Positions 3,653 through 58,734 of a stretch of DNA of 64,000 bases are shown here, in pieces. The position numbers were made by a program, and so were the translations under genes. Origin of the DNA: Myxococcota bacterium (lineage in GTDB: Bacteria > Myxococcota_A > UBA9160 > UBA4427); NCBI GenBank assembly GCA_965250285.1, contig OZ252299.1, positions 608,001 to 672,000 on the forward strand, read 5' to 3'. A model generated the notes under the pieces. That model saw only the letters and a program-made list of their open reading frames with translations, did not search any database and had not been told where the DNA came from. Positions within the stretch are counted from its first letter, which is position 1. Every line of letters starts with the position of its first letter.

Positions 3653-3812
3653 GCGGTGCCGCGAGAGGCGCGCGGAGGTCGTCTCGAGGGATGCTCTGCA
3701 GAACTCGCTCCACGCATGTTGGAACAGCTCTGGGCGGCGACCTCGATGACGCGATGCGACCCAAACCGATGCCACCAGAAGCGAGTGCTGCGCACCAACC
3801 GAAGCGTCCCGA

Positions 3813-3930
3813 GGCCGGGGCAGGCGGGGGTACCGCGCGCAGTTCGCAGGCGCGCTGGGTGCAGCATGCGAGTTTCCCTGATGGGTCGCGCCGAGAATGT
3901 CTGAGCACGGTGCCCCCGCCTGCCCCGGCC
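3813..3930. repeat. 26-bp inverted repeat with ~66-nt spacer
   Basis: ggccggggcaggcgggggtaccgcgc (3813-3838) vs gcacggtgcccccgcctgccccggcc (3905-3930), 2 mismatches. Confidence 0.8.
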
Positions 3931-4030
3931 CTGGCACGGCAGACCGGGCAGAGGTTCCCTATCGGGACCGGGGGACGCGCGCGCGGGGTCGTCTCTTTGC
4001 GGGGCCGGGTGACGCGCGCGGCGGTCGTCG

Positions 4031-5518
4031 TCAGCGGCCGCGCAGCAGCGAGTCGGACGACATCAGCTGCCGCCGATCGTCGTCGCTCCAGGGCAGGCTG
4101 CGCACGTCGAAGCTCTCGCGGATCCATCCCCCCTCGCCATCGAGGGCGTTGAAGAACGCGGCGGCCACCGGCTCGAGCACGTGGGCCTGGCTGCCGCCCG
4201 GCCACTCGGGGTACTGGGGGATGTCATCGCTGTAGCGGTGGGCGAAGACACCGATCTCGACGAGGCGGCGTCGGTCGGTGCGTGAGATCCAGTAGAGCGG
4301 GTGCTGGGTCTGTTCGTCGAGATAGATCGTGATCGTGCGGATCGTCTCGTTCTTGCGCTTGAGCGCGCCCTCGATCACGACCGCCGAGCGTACGTCCCAG
4401 CGGTCGCTCGCGAGAGAGAGCCCCGAGTAGCCGTAGAGCCGCTCTTCCTCGATCGGATAGCCCGACTGATTGCTGTTGATCGGCGCGATGACGACGGTGC
4501 GGCCGCGCACGCGCCAGACGAACGCGTTGGGGCGAAGCTCGAGCCCCGTGAAGCCGATGCGCGCGTCCTCGGTCTCGCCGATGTTGATGCCGGCGCCGGG
4601 GTTCACCGCGCCGGTGCCCACCGCGATGCCCCCGCCTCCGGACTGGCCCGACCACGTGAACCTCGGCGTATAGAAGCCGTCGACCCAGTTCGTTGCGGCC
4701 CGGCGCACCTTCCGCATCGACGGCACGTAGACGAAGATGTCGTCGGGCTCTTCCCAGCGCCGCGCGCTCTTCTCGACGCGGTACTGGCGCCAGGCGAGGC
4801 CGCGGGCGGCGAAGGGGTGGCTGAACGATCCCGCGCCCACCCAGAGCCGATCCTTCGCCTCGGGTACGGCATAGCCCTGCTCCCACAGATCGGCGCGCTC
4901 CTTCAGCTTGAGCAGGCTGAACTCGCCGCGATAGGTCTGGGTGCGGCCGAGGCCGCTCGCGTGGCTGCGAATGCGCATGCGACCGCGATGGCCCGCCCCG
5001 CGGTAGCGCTTCTCGAAGTTCCAGGCCCAGCGCAGGCCCGCGGTGCTGTCGTCGTCGGCGAACGTGTCGGGGGGGAAGGGCTGGCCCGCCGTGTAGTTCT
5101 CGAGGTTGCCGTGCTTGTCGAGCTTCGGCTGCCCCTTGAACTGCTCGGTCGCCGAGCGGTAGGCCTTCGGGATGATGAAGCGGCGGTGGCACGGGCCGAT
5201 CTCCATCTGCATGCCTTCGAAGAAGAAGACCTCGCGGAACTTCCACAGCTCGGAGGGAAGCAGGGTGCGCAGCGCGAGCAGTGAATCCTTGTCGATCGTC
5301 ATGCCGGGCTCGATGACGACCGGGGCGGCGTCCTCTTGCGTCTGCCCGTCTTCGCTCGTCGCCTGAAGCGTGGGGCAGTCGCCCTCGTCGGGCGTCGCCG
5401 ACGCGGCCTGCGCCGCGAGCAGGGCCCACGCTGCGGCGAGGGCGGCACGCCAGAACGAAGAGCGGCGCGCGCATCGCCGGCGCGGCTGCGCAGCGAGTTG
5501 GGGGCGGGTCGTCGGCAC
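4031..5518 (-). CDS. DUF1329-like periplasmic protein (LolA-like lipid carrier family)
   Basis: GTG start after ggagga RBS; signal peptide (AAQAASA); motifs NYTAGQPFP, AGLRWAWN, DDIFVYVPSMRKVRR. Confidence 0.7.
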   Translation of the reverse strand: MPTTRPQLAAQPRRRCARRSSFWRAALAAAWALLAAQAASATPDEGDCPTLQATSEDGQTQEDAAPVVIEPGMTIDKDSLLALRTLLPSELWKFREVFFFEGMQMEIGPCHRRFIIPKAYRSATEQFKGQPKLDKHGNLENYTAGQPFPPDTFADDDSTAGLRWAWNFEKRYRGAGHRGRMRIRSHASGLGRTQTYRGEFSLLKLKERADLWEQGYAVPEAKDRLWVGAGSFSHPFAARGLAWRQYRVEKSARRWEEPDDIFVYVPSMRKVRRAATNWVDGFYTPRFTWSGQSGGGGIAVGTGAVNPGAGINIGETEDARIGFTGLELRPNAFVWRVRGRTVVIAPINSNQSGYPIEEERLYGYSGLSLASDRWDVRSAVVIEGALKRKNETIRTITIYLDEQTQHPLYWISRTDRRRLVEIGVFAHRYSDDIPQYPEWPGGSQAHVLEPVAAAFFNALDGEGGWIRESFDVRSLPWSDDDRRQLMSSDSLLRGR

Positions 5519-5731
5519 GGGCTCCTCCCGGGGTGCTTCGGCGCGCCTCGGCGCTCGGCGGACGAGCGAGTCTACCGGTCGCGGCGCGCCCGCGCGTGGG
5601 TGGCGGGGCAACCCTGCGGGCGTGACGCGAGGGCGGACGGGGGACGGGTCGAGGTTGCCCGCATGACGCGAGGGCGTGCCGGGTGGGTCGGGCTACCCTG
5701 CCGGGGCCTTCGAAGCGCCGGAGCCCAATCC

Positions 5732-6703
5732 ATGGCCAGAAGATCGATCGGTGTCCCGGTCACCGTCGGCACGGTCCTCATCGTGCTGGTGCTCGCGCTC
5801 GCCGTCGGCTGGCAGGTGCTCGTATGGACTGATTCCGGGCCCGACCCGGCCGCGCTGCCCCGCCTCGACTGGCTGCTGCTGGTGCTCGGCACGACGTTCT
5901 TCGCAGTGGTCATGATCGGTCTCGTCTGGCTCTGCACCTGGCTGGTCGCCGAGGTTCGCCTCAATCAGCGCCAGCGCGCGTTTCTCGACGCCGTGACCCA
6001 CGAGATGAAGACCCCGCTCGCGTCGGTTCGGCTCGGCCTCGAGACCCTCGATCGGCACAACCTCGACGAAGCGCGTCGGCACGACTTTCTGCGCAGCATG
6101 GGCGAAGACCTCGATCGCCTCGACGAGACGATCGCGCTCGTCCTGGCCGCAGCGCGGGCCGAGGAGCGAGGCCGGGGCGACTGGCGCCGACGCCCGGCCA
6201 TCGAGCTGGGGGACGTGATCGACGACTCGGTGCACGAGCTCGTCGAGCGCCACGGGCTACCGGCCTCGGCCGTCACGGTCGATCCGATCGCCCCGGTTCG
6301 CGTGCTCGGCGATCGCAGCGAGCTCTCGCTGATCTTCCGCAATCTGCTCGAGAATGCGTTCAAGTACTCGCGGGGTGAGCCGGCGATCCACGTGAGCGTG
6401 CAGCAGCCCTCCGAGGGCCGCGTTGCGATCGCGATCGGCGACGAGGGCATCGGGATCCCGCGCCACGAGCTGCGCAAGATCTTCAACCGCTTCTATCGTG
6501 CGGGGCGCGACGTGCAGAGGCAGGTGGCGGGGCTCGGCCTCGGGCTCTTCGTCGTGCGTGCCATGGTGCGCAAGCAGGGGGGGCGTGTGGTCGCCGAGAG
6601 CGAAGGAGCGGGCCAGGGCAGCCGCTTCGTCGTGACGTTGCGCACAGCAGCTCGCAGCGAGCGCAGCGCCAGCAGCATGCACCCGGCGCCCCACGCCGGC
6701 TGA
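5732..6703 (+). CDS. Sensor histidine kinase, 2 TM with short loop
   Basis: H-box AVTHEMKTPL, N-box NLLENAFKYS, G1 DEGIGIP, G2 GLGLGL. Confidence 0.92.
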   Translation: MARRSIGVPVTVGTVLIVLVLALAVGWQVLVWTDSGPDPAALPRLDWLLLVLGTTFFAVVMIGLVWLCTWLVAEVRLNQRQRAFLDAVTHEMKTPLASVRLGLETLDRHNLDEARRHDFLRSMGEDLDRLDETIALVLAAARAEERGRGDWRRRPAIELGDVIDDSVHELVERHGLPASAVTVDPIAPVRVLGDRSELSLIFRNLLENAFKYSRGEPAIHVSVQQPSEGRVAIAIGDEGIGIPRHELRKIFNRFYRAGRDVQRQVAGLGLGLFVVRAMVRKQGGRVVAESEGAGQGSRFVVTLRTAARSERSASSMHPAPHAG

Positions 6704-6735
6704 GGGCTTCGAGGCCCGCGAGGAAGACGTCGCAC

Positions 6736-7437
6736 GTGTCCCACATCCTGATCGTCGAAGACGAGGCCCACATCGCCGAGGGTCTCCGCTTCAATCTCGA
6801 GGCCGAGGGCTACGCGGTCGACGTCGTCGGCGATGGCCGGGCCGCGACCGAGGAGCTGGCGCGCGAGGATTGCGACGTCGATCTGGTGATCCTCGACCTG
6901 ATGCTGCCCGAGATGAACGGCTTCGAGGTGGCGCGGCGGATGCGGGCCGCGGGCAACTACGCGTCGATCCTCATGTTGACGGCGCTCGATGGCTCGGCCG
7001 ACGTGGTGCGGGGGCTCGAAGAGGGCGCCGACGACTATCTGACGAAGCCGTTTCGTCTCGAAGAGCTGCTCGCGCGCGTACGGGGGCTGCTGCGTCGTCG
7101 TCGCTGGGACGGCGTCGACGACGCGCCCGACAAGCCGCGGGTGGTCGAGTTCGGCGAGGCGAAGCTGCACCTCGATCGTTTCGAGCTCGAGACGCAGGGC
7201 GAGACGATTCGCCTCACGACGCGCGAGATGGGGCTGCTCCGCGCGTTGATCGAGCGTGAGGGTGAGGTCGTGACGCGGGGCGAACTGCTCGAAGAGGTCT
7301 GGGGTTTGCGCCCCGATACGCGAACCCGCGTCATCGACAGCTTCATCGTGCGGCTGCGTCGTTACATCGAGACCGACCCGGCACGGCCGCGACACATCGT
7401 GTCGGTTCGTGGCCACGGCTACCGCTTTCAGAGATAG
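6736..7437 (+). CDS. OmpR/PhoB-family response regulator
   Basis: ILIVEDE, LDLMLP, GADDYLTKPF receiver motifs plus winged-helix VRGHGYRF. Confidence 0.95.
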   Translation: MSHILIVEDEAHIAEGLRFNLEAEGYAVDVVGDGRAATEELAREDCDVDLVILDLMLPEMNGFEVARRMRAAGNYASILMLTALDGSADVVRGLEEGADDYLTKPFRLEELLARVRGLLRRRRWDGVDDAPDKPRVVEFGEAKLHLDRFELETQGETIRLTTREMGLLRALIEREGEVVTRGELLEEVWGLRPDTRTRVIDSFIVRLRRYIETDPARPRHIVSVRGHGYRFQR

Positions 7438-7494
7438 CGTCGACCGCGGTGCCACCCGACGACGCGCAGGCTTCGACTTTCGTACCCGCTGTGC

Positions 7495-8337
7495 GTGACA
7501 CGACGTTCGCACATCGGCCCTTGTGGCGTCGACGGAGAACGTGCCACTCTTTCTGTCGTGGACTCACCGCTTCGGTTTCACGTGCGCCCCGAGCTCGATC
7601 GTCCCTGGCTGCTTCTCGCCTTCGAAGGCTGGAACGACGCCGGTGAGGCGGGGACGACGGCGCTTCGGTACGTCTCGGATTCGATGCGCTCGGTGCCGCT
7701 GGCCGACGTCGATCCCGACGAGTTCTACGACTTCACCGTGCGTCGACCGCTCGTCTCGATCGATGACGAAGGCGAGCGCCATGTCGATTGGCCCGCGACC
7801 GAGTTTCGCTACGGCACGCTCGTCGATGGCCGCGAGCTGGTCATCGGCGTCGGGGTCGAGCCGCACTTCCGGTGGCGCCGGTACTGCGACGCCGTGGTCG
7901 ATCTCGCGCTCGACATGGGAGTTCAGCAGGTCGCGCTCGTCGGCGGGTACCTCGCCGACGTGGTGTACAGCCAGCCCGTCGCGTTGACCGGTCTGGCGAC
8001 GGAGCCCGTCGACCTCGAAGCGCTCGGTGTGTCGACGTCACGCTACGAGGGGCCGATCGGCATCCTCGGCGTGCTCGACGAGCGGCTCCGGCGTGAAGGC
8101 CTCTCGGTCACGAGCATCTGGGCCGGCTTGCCGCACTACATCGACGCCTCTCCCAACCCGCGCGGTGCACTCGCCCTCGTGCACAAGCTCGGCGAGCTGG
8201 TCGAGATGGAGGTCGACGACGCGGCGCTTCGGCTCGAAGCGGCCGAGTTCGAAGAGCGGGTATCGAAGGTCGTGGCTGCGGATGCAGAGCTCGCGGACTA
8301 CGTGCGGCGGCTGAAGAAGCGGGAGTTTGCGCAGTAG
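7495..8337 (+). CDS. PAC2 family (proteasome assembly chaperone-like) protein
   Basis: AFEGWNDAGEA, DPDEFYDF..RP, GVEPHFRW, YEGPIG, WAGLPHY motifs; start may be GTG 7558. Confidence 0.85.
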   Translation: MTRRSHIGPCGVDGERATLSVVDSPLRFHVRPELDRPWLLLAFEGWNDAGEAGTTALRYVSDSMRSVPLADVDPDEFYDFTVRRPLVSIDDEGERHVDWPATEFRYGTLVDGRELVIGVGVEPHFRWRRYCDAVVDLALDMGVQQVALVGGYLADVVYSQPVALTGLATEPVDLEALGVSTSRYEGPIGILGVLDERLRREGLSVTSIWAGLPHYIDASPNPRGALALVHKLGELVEMEVDDAALRLEAAEFEERVSKVVAADAELADYVRRLKKREFAQ

Positions 8338-8374
8338 CGGTTTCGCGTGCGCGTGGACGTGAGCGGTTGCTCGG

Positions 8375-8508
8375 TTCGCGTTTTCGGGGTGTCGTCCTCA
8401 GATTCCGGCGGGCCCGTTCTGCCGAAACGATTCGCATCTGCTCGTTTGGTGCCGCTTGGGTTGGGCTGGCCCGCCTTCAACTTGCGGGCGCCACCCCGAA
8501 AACGCGAA
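8375..8508 (+). repeat. Hairpin repeat element, copy A (134 bp)
   Basis: Perfect 17-bp terminal IR ttcgcgttttcggggtg/caccccgaaaacgcgaa; conserved cgtcctcaga and acttgcgggcg motifs. Confidence 0.9.
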
Positions 8509-8741
8509 GCGTCGATCGAGTGGCCGCGTGCTTGCTTGGAGAGGGGGGCTCGTCGCGGCCTGGCGGGCCGCGGCTCGCCGCTCTTGCAACGCCCCCGTCG
8601 AGATCGAACCACTCCGCGCGTGCGAGCTTGGCCAAAGCAACGCGAACCAACGGGGGACGAGGCCTGAAGGCCGAGGCCCCGCTCCCAACCAAAGAGAATG
8701 GGGGGCGCACCGCTTCTGGGATCGAGTCCCACGGCGCGTCT

Positions 8742-8875
8742 CGGGTTTTCGAGGGGGGCGCCCGCAAGTTGGAGGCGGGCGCCAAAGCAGCTCAAGTGTT
8801 GCGGCCCAGGCGAAAGCGCCCCAATCCCGTACAGCCAGCCCGCCGGAATCTGAGGACGCCCCCCTCGAAAACCCG
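8742..8875 (-). repeat. Hairpin repeat element, copy B (134 bp, inverted relative to A)
   Basis: Reverse complement reads cgggttttcgaggggggcgtcctcagattccggcgggc...gcccgcctccaacttgcgggcgcccccctcgaaaacccg. Confidence 0.9.
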
Positions 8876-8898
8876 CCCGGGCACAACCTTCGAACGAG

Positions 8899-9147
8899 CT
8901 AAAGCTCGATCGACTCCTCCACCAGCATCACCGGAATATCATCATCCACCACGTACAGCACCCGCCCGTCTTCTCGCACCAACCCTTCGGCGATCGCCTT
9001 CTCGGGCTTGTCACCGCCCCGGTTGCGCAGGGTGCCGGCCTTGATCTTCTCGTTCAGGTCGGCGACCACGCCAGCGTCGGCGACGCTCAGCGCTTGCTTC
9101 GTCTCGGGGCAGACCAGGATCTCGAGCAGCTCGGCGTTGACGGGCAT
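8899..9147 (-). CDS. Trm112-family protein (82 aa)
   Basis: LLEILVCPETK...YVVDDDIPVMLVEE; aaggag RBS. Confidence 0.85.
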   Translation of the reverse strand: MPVNAELLEILVCPETKQALSVADAGVVADLNEKIKAGTLRNRGGDKPEKAIAEGLVREDGRVLYVVDDDIPVMLVEESIEL

Positions 9148-9203
9148 CGGGGTTCTCCTTGCAGGGCGTGCCCGGGCGGGAGCCCGGGCGTGGGCGCCGG
9201 ACT

Positions 9204-10436
<1,233 letters not shown>

Positions 10437-10485
10437 GGGGTTCTCCTGCGATCTGATTGTGAAGGTGGGCGCGTGCGCGAGTGAC

Positions 10486-11565
10486 TCAGATCTGTGTCAT
10501 GGCTTCGAGGCTGCTCGTGAAACCGACGGCGTTGCGCAGGTACATCTCGGGCAGGTAGTCACGAATGAAGCCGTGGCCGCCGAAGACCTGCACCGAGTCG
10601 TCGGCGCACTTGAGCGCGACTTGCTTGGCCTGGTTGTAGGCGAGCGTGGCCTTGCGGCTCGCATCCACGCCCTGGTCGAGGTCGTTTGCCGCCTCCCAGG
10701 TCAAGAGTCGCGCGGCGTCGATCTCGATCGCCATGTCGGCGAGCTTGAACGCGATGGCCTGCCGCGTCGCGATCGGCGCGCCGAACGTCTCGCGCTCCTT
10801 CGCGTAGTCGCGGGCGATCTCGAACGCCGCCCGCGCCATGCCTACGGCGCACGCGGCGAGGCCGACCCGCCCGCGGTGCACGACCGACCGGACGTCGCCG
10901 CCGAGCTTGGCGCTCGCATCGACGCGCACGTTCGAGAGCGTCAGCTCGGCCGTCGGGATGCCGCGCAGGCCGACGTTCTTCTCACGCTCGGCGCTGAGCC
11001 CGTCGGCGTCGCGCGGCACGACGTAGGCGCCGAGCTCGCCGCCGTCCGCGGCGAACACGAGCACGTGTCGGCCCCCGTCGAGCCAGGGCACCTGGGCCTT
11101 CTGGCCATCGATCACGATCGTGTCGCCGTCCTGCTTGGCGGTCGTCTGCGGTCGGTAGGGGTCGCTGTCCCAACGCGGCTCGGTGATCGCGAGCGCACCG
11201 GGGACGAAGGCGTCGCCGAGCAGCGTGGGCAGGATCTCGGCCTGCAGGGCCTCGCTGCCGAGCGTGGCCACCGGTATGCCCAGCAGCCCCGGGGACAGGA
11301 TCGCCAGCGCCGTCGAGACGTCGCCCCAGGCGAGCTCCTCCGCGATCAGGCAGCCGGTCATCGCGCTCGGCTCCCCGCCGCCGCCGTGGGCTTCGGGCAG
11401 GCCATTCGCCACGAGGCCGAGCTCGTGGGCGCCGGCGAGCAGCCCCGCGTCGGCCGCGGCGGCCTCGTCGCACTCGCGTGCCTTCGGGCGGATCTCGTTC
11501 TCGGCGAACTGCCGAACGGTCTCGATGATGAGCGCCTGCTCTTCGGTGGGTTCGAAGTCGATCAT
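10486..11565 (-). CDS. Acyl-CoA dehydrogenase (tandem partner, FadE23/24-like pair)
   Basis: MIDFEPTEEQ start; ALAITEP, YAKERETFGAPI, QVFGGHGFIRDY. Confidence 0.9.
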   Translation of the reverse strand: MIDFEPTEEQALIIETVRQFAENEIRPKARECDEAAAADAGLLAGAHELGLVANGLPEAHGGGGEPSAMTGCLIAEELAWGDVSTALAILSPGLLGIPVATLGSEALQAEILPTLLGDAFVPGALAITEPRWDSDPYRPQTTAKQDGDTIVIDGQKAQVPWLDGGRHVLVFAADGGELGAYVVPRDADGLSAEREKNVGLRGIPTAELTLSNVRVDASAKLGGDVRSVVHRGRVGLAACAVGMARAAFEIARDYAKERETFGAPIATRQAIAFKLADMAIEIDAARLLTWEAANDLDQGVDASRKATLAYNQAKQVALKCADDSVQVFGGHGFIRDYLPEMYLRNAVGFTSSLEAMTQI

Positions 11566-37569: not shown

Positions 37570-37645
37570 TGGCTCCCCGGGTAGGACTTGAACCTACGAC
37601 AAGGCGGTTAACAGCCGCCTGCTCTGCCAGCTGAGCTACCGGGGA
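37570..37645 (-). tRNA. tRNA-Asn (GTT)
   Basis: tccccggtagctcagctggcagagcaggcggctGTTaaccgcc...ggttcaagtcctacccggggagCCA, 76 nt. Confidence 0.97.
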
Positions 37646-40708: not shown

Positions 40709-40785
<77 letters not shown>

Positions 40786-55091: not shown

Positions 55092-55291
55092 CGGCACTCC
55101 GCCCCTATAACTGCCTGCCCTGAAAGGAAAAACCCTTCGGAACCGTACCCCATGCGGACGCTGGGGCAACCAGGTCAGTGAGGGGCACATCGGCGATGCG
55201 CAAAGGCGACTTGAGAGCGGGGGCGCCGGAAACCGTCGACTTGGGTCGGGGGGATCGAGCGAGCTCGCGCGACGGGGGTGGGGAGGTCGGG

Positions 55292-55428
55292 TCGGGTTTT
55301 CGGGGGTGTCGTCCTCAGACTGCGGCGGCCTGGCTTTGCGAGTTCGGGATGGCTCCGTTTGGATTGGGTGTGGGGTGCACCCTTCGAAGGCCGCCTTCGA
55401 CTTGCGGGCGTCACCCCCGAAAACCCGA
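55292..55428 (+). repeat. Hairpin repeat element, copy C (137 bp)
   Basis: tcgggttttcgggggtg-tcgtcctcagactgc-ggcggcct...aggccgcc-ttcgacttgcgggcgt-cacccccgaaaacccga. Confidence 0.9.
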
Positions 55429-56572: not shown

Positions 56573-58512
<1,940 letters not shown>

Positions 58513-58603: not shown

Positions 58604-58734
58604 CTGCGCCGAGGGTTGACCGCAGGGCACCCCCGCTCGCAACCGACAACTCGCTACGGCTGCTTCCTTCCGGACCTGACCGGGTTCACGGGCTCCCGCT
58701 TCGAACGGGACCCCACGGTCAGCCCTCGGCGCAG
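58604..58734 (-). ncRNA. ffs: Signal recognition particle RNA (4.5S)
   Basis: Domain IV gtgaacccggtcaggtccggaaggaagcagcc; 19-bp closing stem; canonical position upstream of dnaX. Confidence 0.95.

Follow-up and report, generated by a model that had tools for sequence, protein, structure and literature searches.

A dispersed, REP-like family of long imperfect hairpins in a Myxococcota genome and its relatives

The window analysed here is a stretch of 64,000 nucleotides (C1:608001-672000) from the genome of a Myxococcota bacterium (G000), which is assembled as one contig of 6.25 Mb with a GC content of 68.6%. Three copies of a long hairpin, to which a first-pass annotation had drawn attention, lay where that annotation had placed them, at 8375-8508 (plus strand), 8742-8875 (minus strand) and 55292-55428 (plus strand). 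Copy 1 consists of a variable, perfectly paired outer stem, a conserved bulged core, an inner stem and a loop; it is preceded by an unpaired 5' foot (8365-8374, plus strand), a TGC-containing foot being present in 53 of 84 family copies, and is followed by a small 3' accessory hairpin (8548-8577, plus strand) of a type common to other copies. Copy 2 is its inverted partner, with the feet of the two pointing outward; its own foot lies at 8876-8886 and its accessory hairpin, of a second type common in a congeneric species (G001), at 8656-8679, both on the minus strand. The pair is flanked by a PAC2-family gene (7582-8337, plus strand), whose stop codon is separated by about 28 nt from the foot of copy 1, and by a Trm112-like gene (8899-9147, minus strand), with about 12 nt between its stop codon and the foot of copy 2. 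Because one read contig of run X1 matched window positions 3917-10500 with zero differences, the doublet at 8375-8875 is not a product of misassembly. Copy 3 with its foot (55282-55428, plus strand) is single and lies between an mglB-like gene (profile match below the cut-off) and recR. The mglB-like gene may point to a lineage akin to the myxobacteria. A hairpin of a sister family (FAM2) in the same superfamily, missed in the first reading, was found at 3805-3938 on the minus strand, inside what is left of the right end of an IS5-family element; this decayed end runs on the plus strand from 3693 to about 3961-3970 and has an IR-like end near 3945-3961. The window also contained four 18-nt tandem repeats inside a long minus-strand reading frame (56996-57085), and two tRNA genes and an SRP RNA recognised by Rfam (37573-37645, 40712-40785 and 58618-58717).

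The full unit was 135-200 nt in size: a foot of about 15 nt on the 5' side precedes the long hairpin, which is often followed by a linker and one of two small 3' hairpins. Compared with shuffled sequences, the three window copies folded with z-scores of -5.0 to -6.9 as RNA and -4.0 to -5.7 as DNA. Their outer stems had been described as different and yet paired, and this was borne out in 21 copies of the source genome by 77 double-sided against 3 one-sided changes; the covariation score of these copies was reached by 0 of 500 shuffles, in a test that kinship among the copies inflates. Among 1162 outer-stem pairs in 83 copies from three species, which carried 44 distinct outer left arms, 1131 were Watson-Crick, 2 G·T, 19 A·C and 10 other; these totals, unlike the number of double changes, are not inflated by shifts of stem length. 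In none of the copies was the mismatched core repaired. Variation within Watson-Crick pairing, together with the unrepaired core, indicated that the sequence of the stem is free, that its pairing is strict and that the irregular core is kept. The earlier suggestion that selection acts on a fold with a conserved bulged core was supported. The two internal-loop motifs, which had been called invariant, were so in the three window copies and differed by subfamily elsewhere. The proposed preference for one strand was weak: the T·G pair of the core favoured the strand named at first, which was more stable by 5-10 kcal/mol as RNA but by only 2-3 as DNA, whereas the outer-stem mispairs (19 A·C against 2 G·T) favoured the other. 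The lagging-strand template, as deduced from skew, carried the foot strand in 11 of 14 single copies against 14 of 28 FAM2 copies (p=0.057), a weak bias that comes from clustered copies and gives a hint only. Alignment A2 left out 3 aberrant copies of the source genome, and the counts leave out 8 copies lacking both motifs and 11 metagenome copies resembling those of G001, with 1 G001 copy missing. As separate observations, C1:5242304-5242544 and L164:17-216 appeared to be collapsed doublets in which two left arms are fused and the middle is lost, and the family copy at C1:5231039-5231204 had a loop extended by a short tandem repeat.

Beyond the three copies first noticed, iterated nhmmer found 24 family copies in the source genome, of which 12 lie at 5.23-5.32 Mb; the congener has about 40, and a third species has further ones. 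Every one of the 24 in the source genome was intergenic with respect to genes called by our own caller, and 9 of the 19 occupied gaps were convergent, against 14.7% genome-wide (p=7e-4). Sixteen of the 24 began 5-47 nt past a same-strand stop codon, and the other 8, both divergent doublets among them, faced a promoter region instead. The copies occurred as singles or as inverted doublets arranged tail to tail with feet outward, and Pfam analysis of 59 neighbouring proteins showed that the genes around them were ordinary or housekeeping ones. The intergenic position, the enrichment in convergent gaps and the inverted doublets agreed with the REP-like behaviour that had been suspected from the window.

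In relatives, a model of the window family (R1) detected it in 3 of 141 genomes: the source genome, the congener (41 rows, 40 places) and G047, which had one divergent copy. A metagenome scan gave 32 loci, 30 of them confirmed by R1 and 20 from the third species. A loose-pattern scan of the genome collection yielded chance matches, R1 giving one weak match (20 bits) in 80 of the 120 loci, and viral contigs contained 0 matches for both hairpin patterns and 1 match to the pattern of a short-loop relative. Of the syntenic sites, 19 were occupied in G001 or in metagenome loci; the source genome was filled at 11 of them and without a hairpin at 8. The orthologous copy was the closest or second-closest copy in the other species at 4 loci, which indicated vertical descent; at 8 loci, including the site of the window doublet, it stood at a random rank and was of the local subtype. 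For 70 of 84 copies the nearest neighbour was in their own species. The filled and empty syntenic sites, and the random-rank orthologues of local subtype, demonstrated gain, loss and overwriting of copies among related species. Comparison of filled with empty syntenic sites fixed neither the borders of the insertion nor a target motif.

Self-comparison of the source genome gave the second family, FAM2 (41 BLAST hits), a hairpin with the same layout and a related core. Model R2, which was trained on 28 FAM2-type hairpins with the window family left out, recognised 11 of 11 window-type copies on the foot strand with 24-36 bits, whereas 14 control loci scored at most 20 bits, and the divergent G047 copy scored 42.5 bits with R1 and 43.9 bits with R2. 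Since window-type copies were not listed in a genome-wide R2 search at E<=0.01, the sequence evidence that the window family is probably homologous to the FAM2 superfamily is good but not overwhelming. The FAM2 core pattern was present in 13 of 141 relatives, in 8 of 401 genomes across the phylum and in 25 of 151 relatives of G472, and a reversed control gave 0. The span between the motifs was family-specific, 74-121 nt overall with steps at about 75, 95-100 and 103-121. Superfamily members were arranged as singles after stop codons, as inverted doublets, as tandem arrays and as inverted pairs enclosing a stretch of genes of 1.8-2.8 kb in all. In G472, inverted pairs bracketed about 2 kb of genes, one stretch having 59% GC in a 70% background. 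G478 was without the 59%-GC block at the same upstream gene, but its right-hand neighbour also differed from that of G472, so that the hairpins are only candidate ends of that insertion. The contents of two such G472 pairs were an SDH-type protease block, the one with 59% GC (L405:2415-4792), and a metallo-hydrolase and LysR pair (L404:2479-4818). Two tandem short-loop hairpins with the inner core motif of FAM2 were also seen at C1:5655039-5655371 (L409); the one at C1:5655094, which by eye shares the motif, scored a non-significant 17 bits.

These features were compared with those of known repeats. According to reports on REPINs, BIMEs and their RAYT or TnpA-REP enzymes (PMC3116915, PMC8266576, PMC8049555), such elements share with ours the intergenic position, conserved arms, compensatory changes, a conserved bulge, inverted doublets and arrays, a spacer whose length outweighs its sequence, and persistence in genomes lacking the enzyme. 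Activity of TnpA-REP on E. coli REPs needs the conserved bulge (PMC8266576), the REPIN spacer is constrained in length (PMC3116915) and REPINs persist in E. coli genomes without RAYT (PMC8049555). As in REPs and REPINs, extragenic imperfect hairpins with conserved mismatches occurred in inverted doublets and arrays. Unlike the arms of a REPIN as described there, those of our hairpins are not two copies of one REP but enclose a fixed asymmetric internal core in a free stem, and the unit measures 135-200 nt rather than 20-40. The GTAG/GTGG foot of REPs was absent in 73 of 84 copies, the foot of the window family being of TGC type, and no Y1 gene flanked by the repeats was found: G000 and G001 had no Y1 match, and the surroundings of 54 Y1 loci were free of the hairpin. 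Hence the hairpins behave like REP, REPIN or BIME elements but fail membership for want of a GTAG foot, a flanked RAYT and symmetric arms. The CGTC REPs and TIR repeats, as described in PMC3733652, likewise form dimers between convergent genes, and the CGTC REPs also have no dedicated transposase, orphan REP-like repeats of this kind being treated there as an open problem; a CGTC REP has an unpaired terminal CGTC, a stem of 8-9 bp and a loop of 4-5 nt, whereas here CGTC is paired within a long stem and the loop is about 50 nt. ERIC/IRU and YPAL repeats (PMC2229807) resemble ours in size, in being long imperfect palindromes and in their transcribed intergenic location; their TA ends and fixed terminal repeat were absent from our hairpins, as was similarity to the 127-bp ERIC consensus. 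Kinship with ERIC was not supported, R2 having no match at E<=1 in an E. coli ERIC locus (L408, one copy) and Rfam showing no link. We found no paper on these motifs or on such a family in a search that left subscription journals mostly outside, and repeat lists supplementing PMC3733652 and PMC6006769 could bear on novelty.

We consider it somewhat probable that the hairpin is a REP/REPIN-like element that is non-autonomous and is mobilised, as folded single-stranded DNA, by an enzyme that acts in trans and reads structure; no such enzyme was found. A host-selected RNA element at the 3' ends of transcripts (a terminator, a stabiliser or a protein-binding stem), spread by hitchhiking on IS and homogenised by gene conversion, is rather unlikely, but it would account for the 16 of 24 copies that follow a same-strand stop codon, for the sites kept vertically between species, and for the cores and stems that outlasted their flanks in 22 dead IS5 ends (described below; the figure for the core is inflated by selection). 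ERIC and YPAL repeats also provide a precedent, since they influence the stability of upstream mRNA (PMC2229807). Evidence against an RNA element came from the 8 of 24 copies, including both divergent doublets, that face a promoter region, from Rfam, which had no relevant family for the window at the gathering score or for 8 loci at E<=5, and from most stand-alone copies, from which the IS end is absent. The outer stem, moreover, had nearly zero G·U pairs, which typical RNA helices do contain. The ssDNA-element reading and the host-RNA reading are not mutually exclusive.

Intact IS5-family elements encoding a 325-aa transposase were found in G071 and G085 with a FAM2 hairpin between the transposase stop codon and the right end, and about 35 decayed IS5 right ends with the same hairpin were present in the source genome, where the transposase survived only as C-terminal scraps. 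In 22 dead ends, which were chosen by the core pattern so that the figure for the core is inflated, identity was 99% in the core, 94-98% in the stems, 90% in the IR, 86% in the loop and 60-72% in the inner flank. From the intact and decayed ends one might take the hairpins to be an IS5-derived MITE, that is, remnants of IS5-family ends in which the hairpin is native. We regard this as improbable, because 13 of 19 readable 3' ends of related IS5 elements had no hairpin (5 had one and 1 was interrupted), the hairpin-less ends including elements 77-80% identical in protein; because the IS5 IR, transposase remnants and right end were all absent from the window family; and because the freely varying stem is unlike a DDE terminal repeat. 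The 13 hairpin-less ends instead suggest that one lineage of the IS5 family (NF033581) likely captured the hairpin in its 3' non-coding end. A CTAG-type duplication was absent from the window family, and FAM2 had the right end only. Many IS5 remnants ended on the TAG stop codon of an opposite-strand neighbour, some were tandemly amplified (four at C1:5764105-5764673), and a very short IS5 3' end in G083 (L306:1689-1760) resembled the hairpin-bearing ends with the stem deleted.

No cognate enzyme had been seen in the window, and models for Y1, Y2, IS110, RT and DUF559 went unmatched in the source genome as well. In the source genome (95% complete) and the congener (83%), none of these models nor DDE_Tnp_1 scored over the cut-off, the Y2 search being without a positive control; RT and IS110 gave no match although their positive controls responded. 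The zinc domain of IS91 had no match in the source genome, tblastn with 28 peptides from Y1 loci gave no Y1-like match, and flanks of about 1.5 kb around 54 Y1 loci (part of all the Y1 matches) contained no hairpin. Y1 genes occurred in 29 of 40 hairpin-bearing genomes and were absent from the hairpin-rich G000, G001, G005 and G047; G073, G124, G547 and G517 each had about 30 Y1-domain genes of 220-300 aa. A GIY-YIG search of G000 and G001 returned a UvrC-sized gene and one other, neither flanked by a hairpin, and Pfam searches with three sets of neighbouring proteins (59, 6, and 50 picked from 189 listed) revealed no recurrent mobile enzyme. An Rpn-family nuclease gene lay between two direct copies at L444:10919-12521 and a DUF222 gene beside a six-copy array at L446:954-5598; neither had a tblastn match in the source genome. 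Excision joints in read contigs, which drop rare variants, were all short-sided and were explained by other repeat copies.

The source genome did have an integron, with an integrase above the cut-off and about 40 attC sites, each roughly 150 bp long and lying in DNA of low GC (C1:5462873-5496000), and integron integrases read folded single strands. That the hairpins are attC-like sites recombined by this integrase, an identity raised at first sight of the window, is nonetheless quite improbable: the R''/R' box pair was found in 0 of 23 copies on either strand, the genome's true attC array lay elsewhere and had a different sequence, R2 had no match in the integrase locus, and the copies formed inverted doublets beside housekeeping genes instead of direct-repeat cassette arrays. 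A second cluster of 5 attC sites was present at C1:109227-111539, about 4 kb from another tyrosine recombinase, and repeated tRNA-end-like segments near low-GC islands (C1:3186880-3187215, 3209478-3209919, 2527468-2527789, 2581772-2581996 and 2602372-2602532) are possibly remnants of integration sites.

The loops had been described as not alignable by eye and as perhaps being exchangeable cargo of fixed length. Their length was indeed constrained, to 47-53 nt between fixed offsets in 84 copies, with a motif span of 94-101 nt in 84 of 86. They could be aligned within species, with an identity of 0.57-0.63 against 0.51-0.53 for shuffled loops and a maximum of 0.96, identity between species being near shuffle level. 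Searches of the loops against phages and plasmids gave zero meaningful matches, and against the rest of the host genome chance-level matches only. Because the loops are diverged homologues within a species and have no foreign match, they are not cargo. An RNA scaffold whose guide or cargo is exchangeable and fixed in length, as in a bridge RNA or a retron, would fit a motif span that is narrow within a family and stepwise between families, but it is most improbable given these loops, the viral contigs without a match and the absence of the cognate RT and of the IS110 DEDD recombinase from G000 and G001. Repeats like those of msDNA, reportedly known from Nannocystis, were rejected because RT is absent. 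The tests described above set the hairpins apart from a CGTC REP, an attC site, an ERIC copy and an IS5 MITE.

If the hairpin is moved as folded ssDNA, as we favour, the enzyme would read the bulged core and the foot and leave the stem sequence free, and the loop would be a spacer of which the length, not the sequence, matters. Stems that acquire a mismatch would undergo arm-to-arm repair or be purged. Two inverted copies would serve as a pair of ends and could carry the DNA between them, and older copies would be replaced by new subtypes through re-insertion or gene conversion. The element would outlive its enzyme, as REPINs do in RAYT-less E. coli (PMC8049555). It is doubtful, though conceivable, that the superfamily represents an undescribed transposition system of the phylum, whose ends would be set by a bulged core of about 20 nt in a free-sequence stem of family-set length, whose inverted ends would mobilise kilobase cargo, overwrite old copies and invade other IS, and whose enzyme would be neither RAYT, IS91, IS110, IntI nor RT.

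The capture by an IS5 lineage, seeding about 35 copies that outlast the transposase, would be one route by which such repeats spread. The pairs that bracket cargo, if mobile, would have ends of interest as tools. Distant families have almost the same letters in the core, with free stems and loops, and the superfamily is thus a phylum-wide, sharply defined substrate for tracing a missing enzyme.
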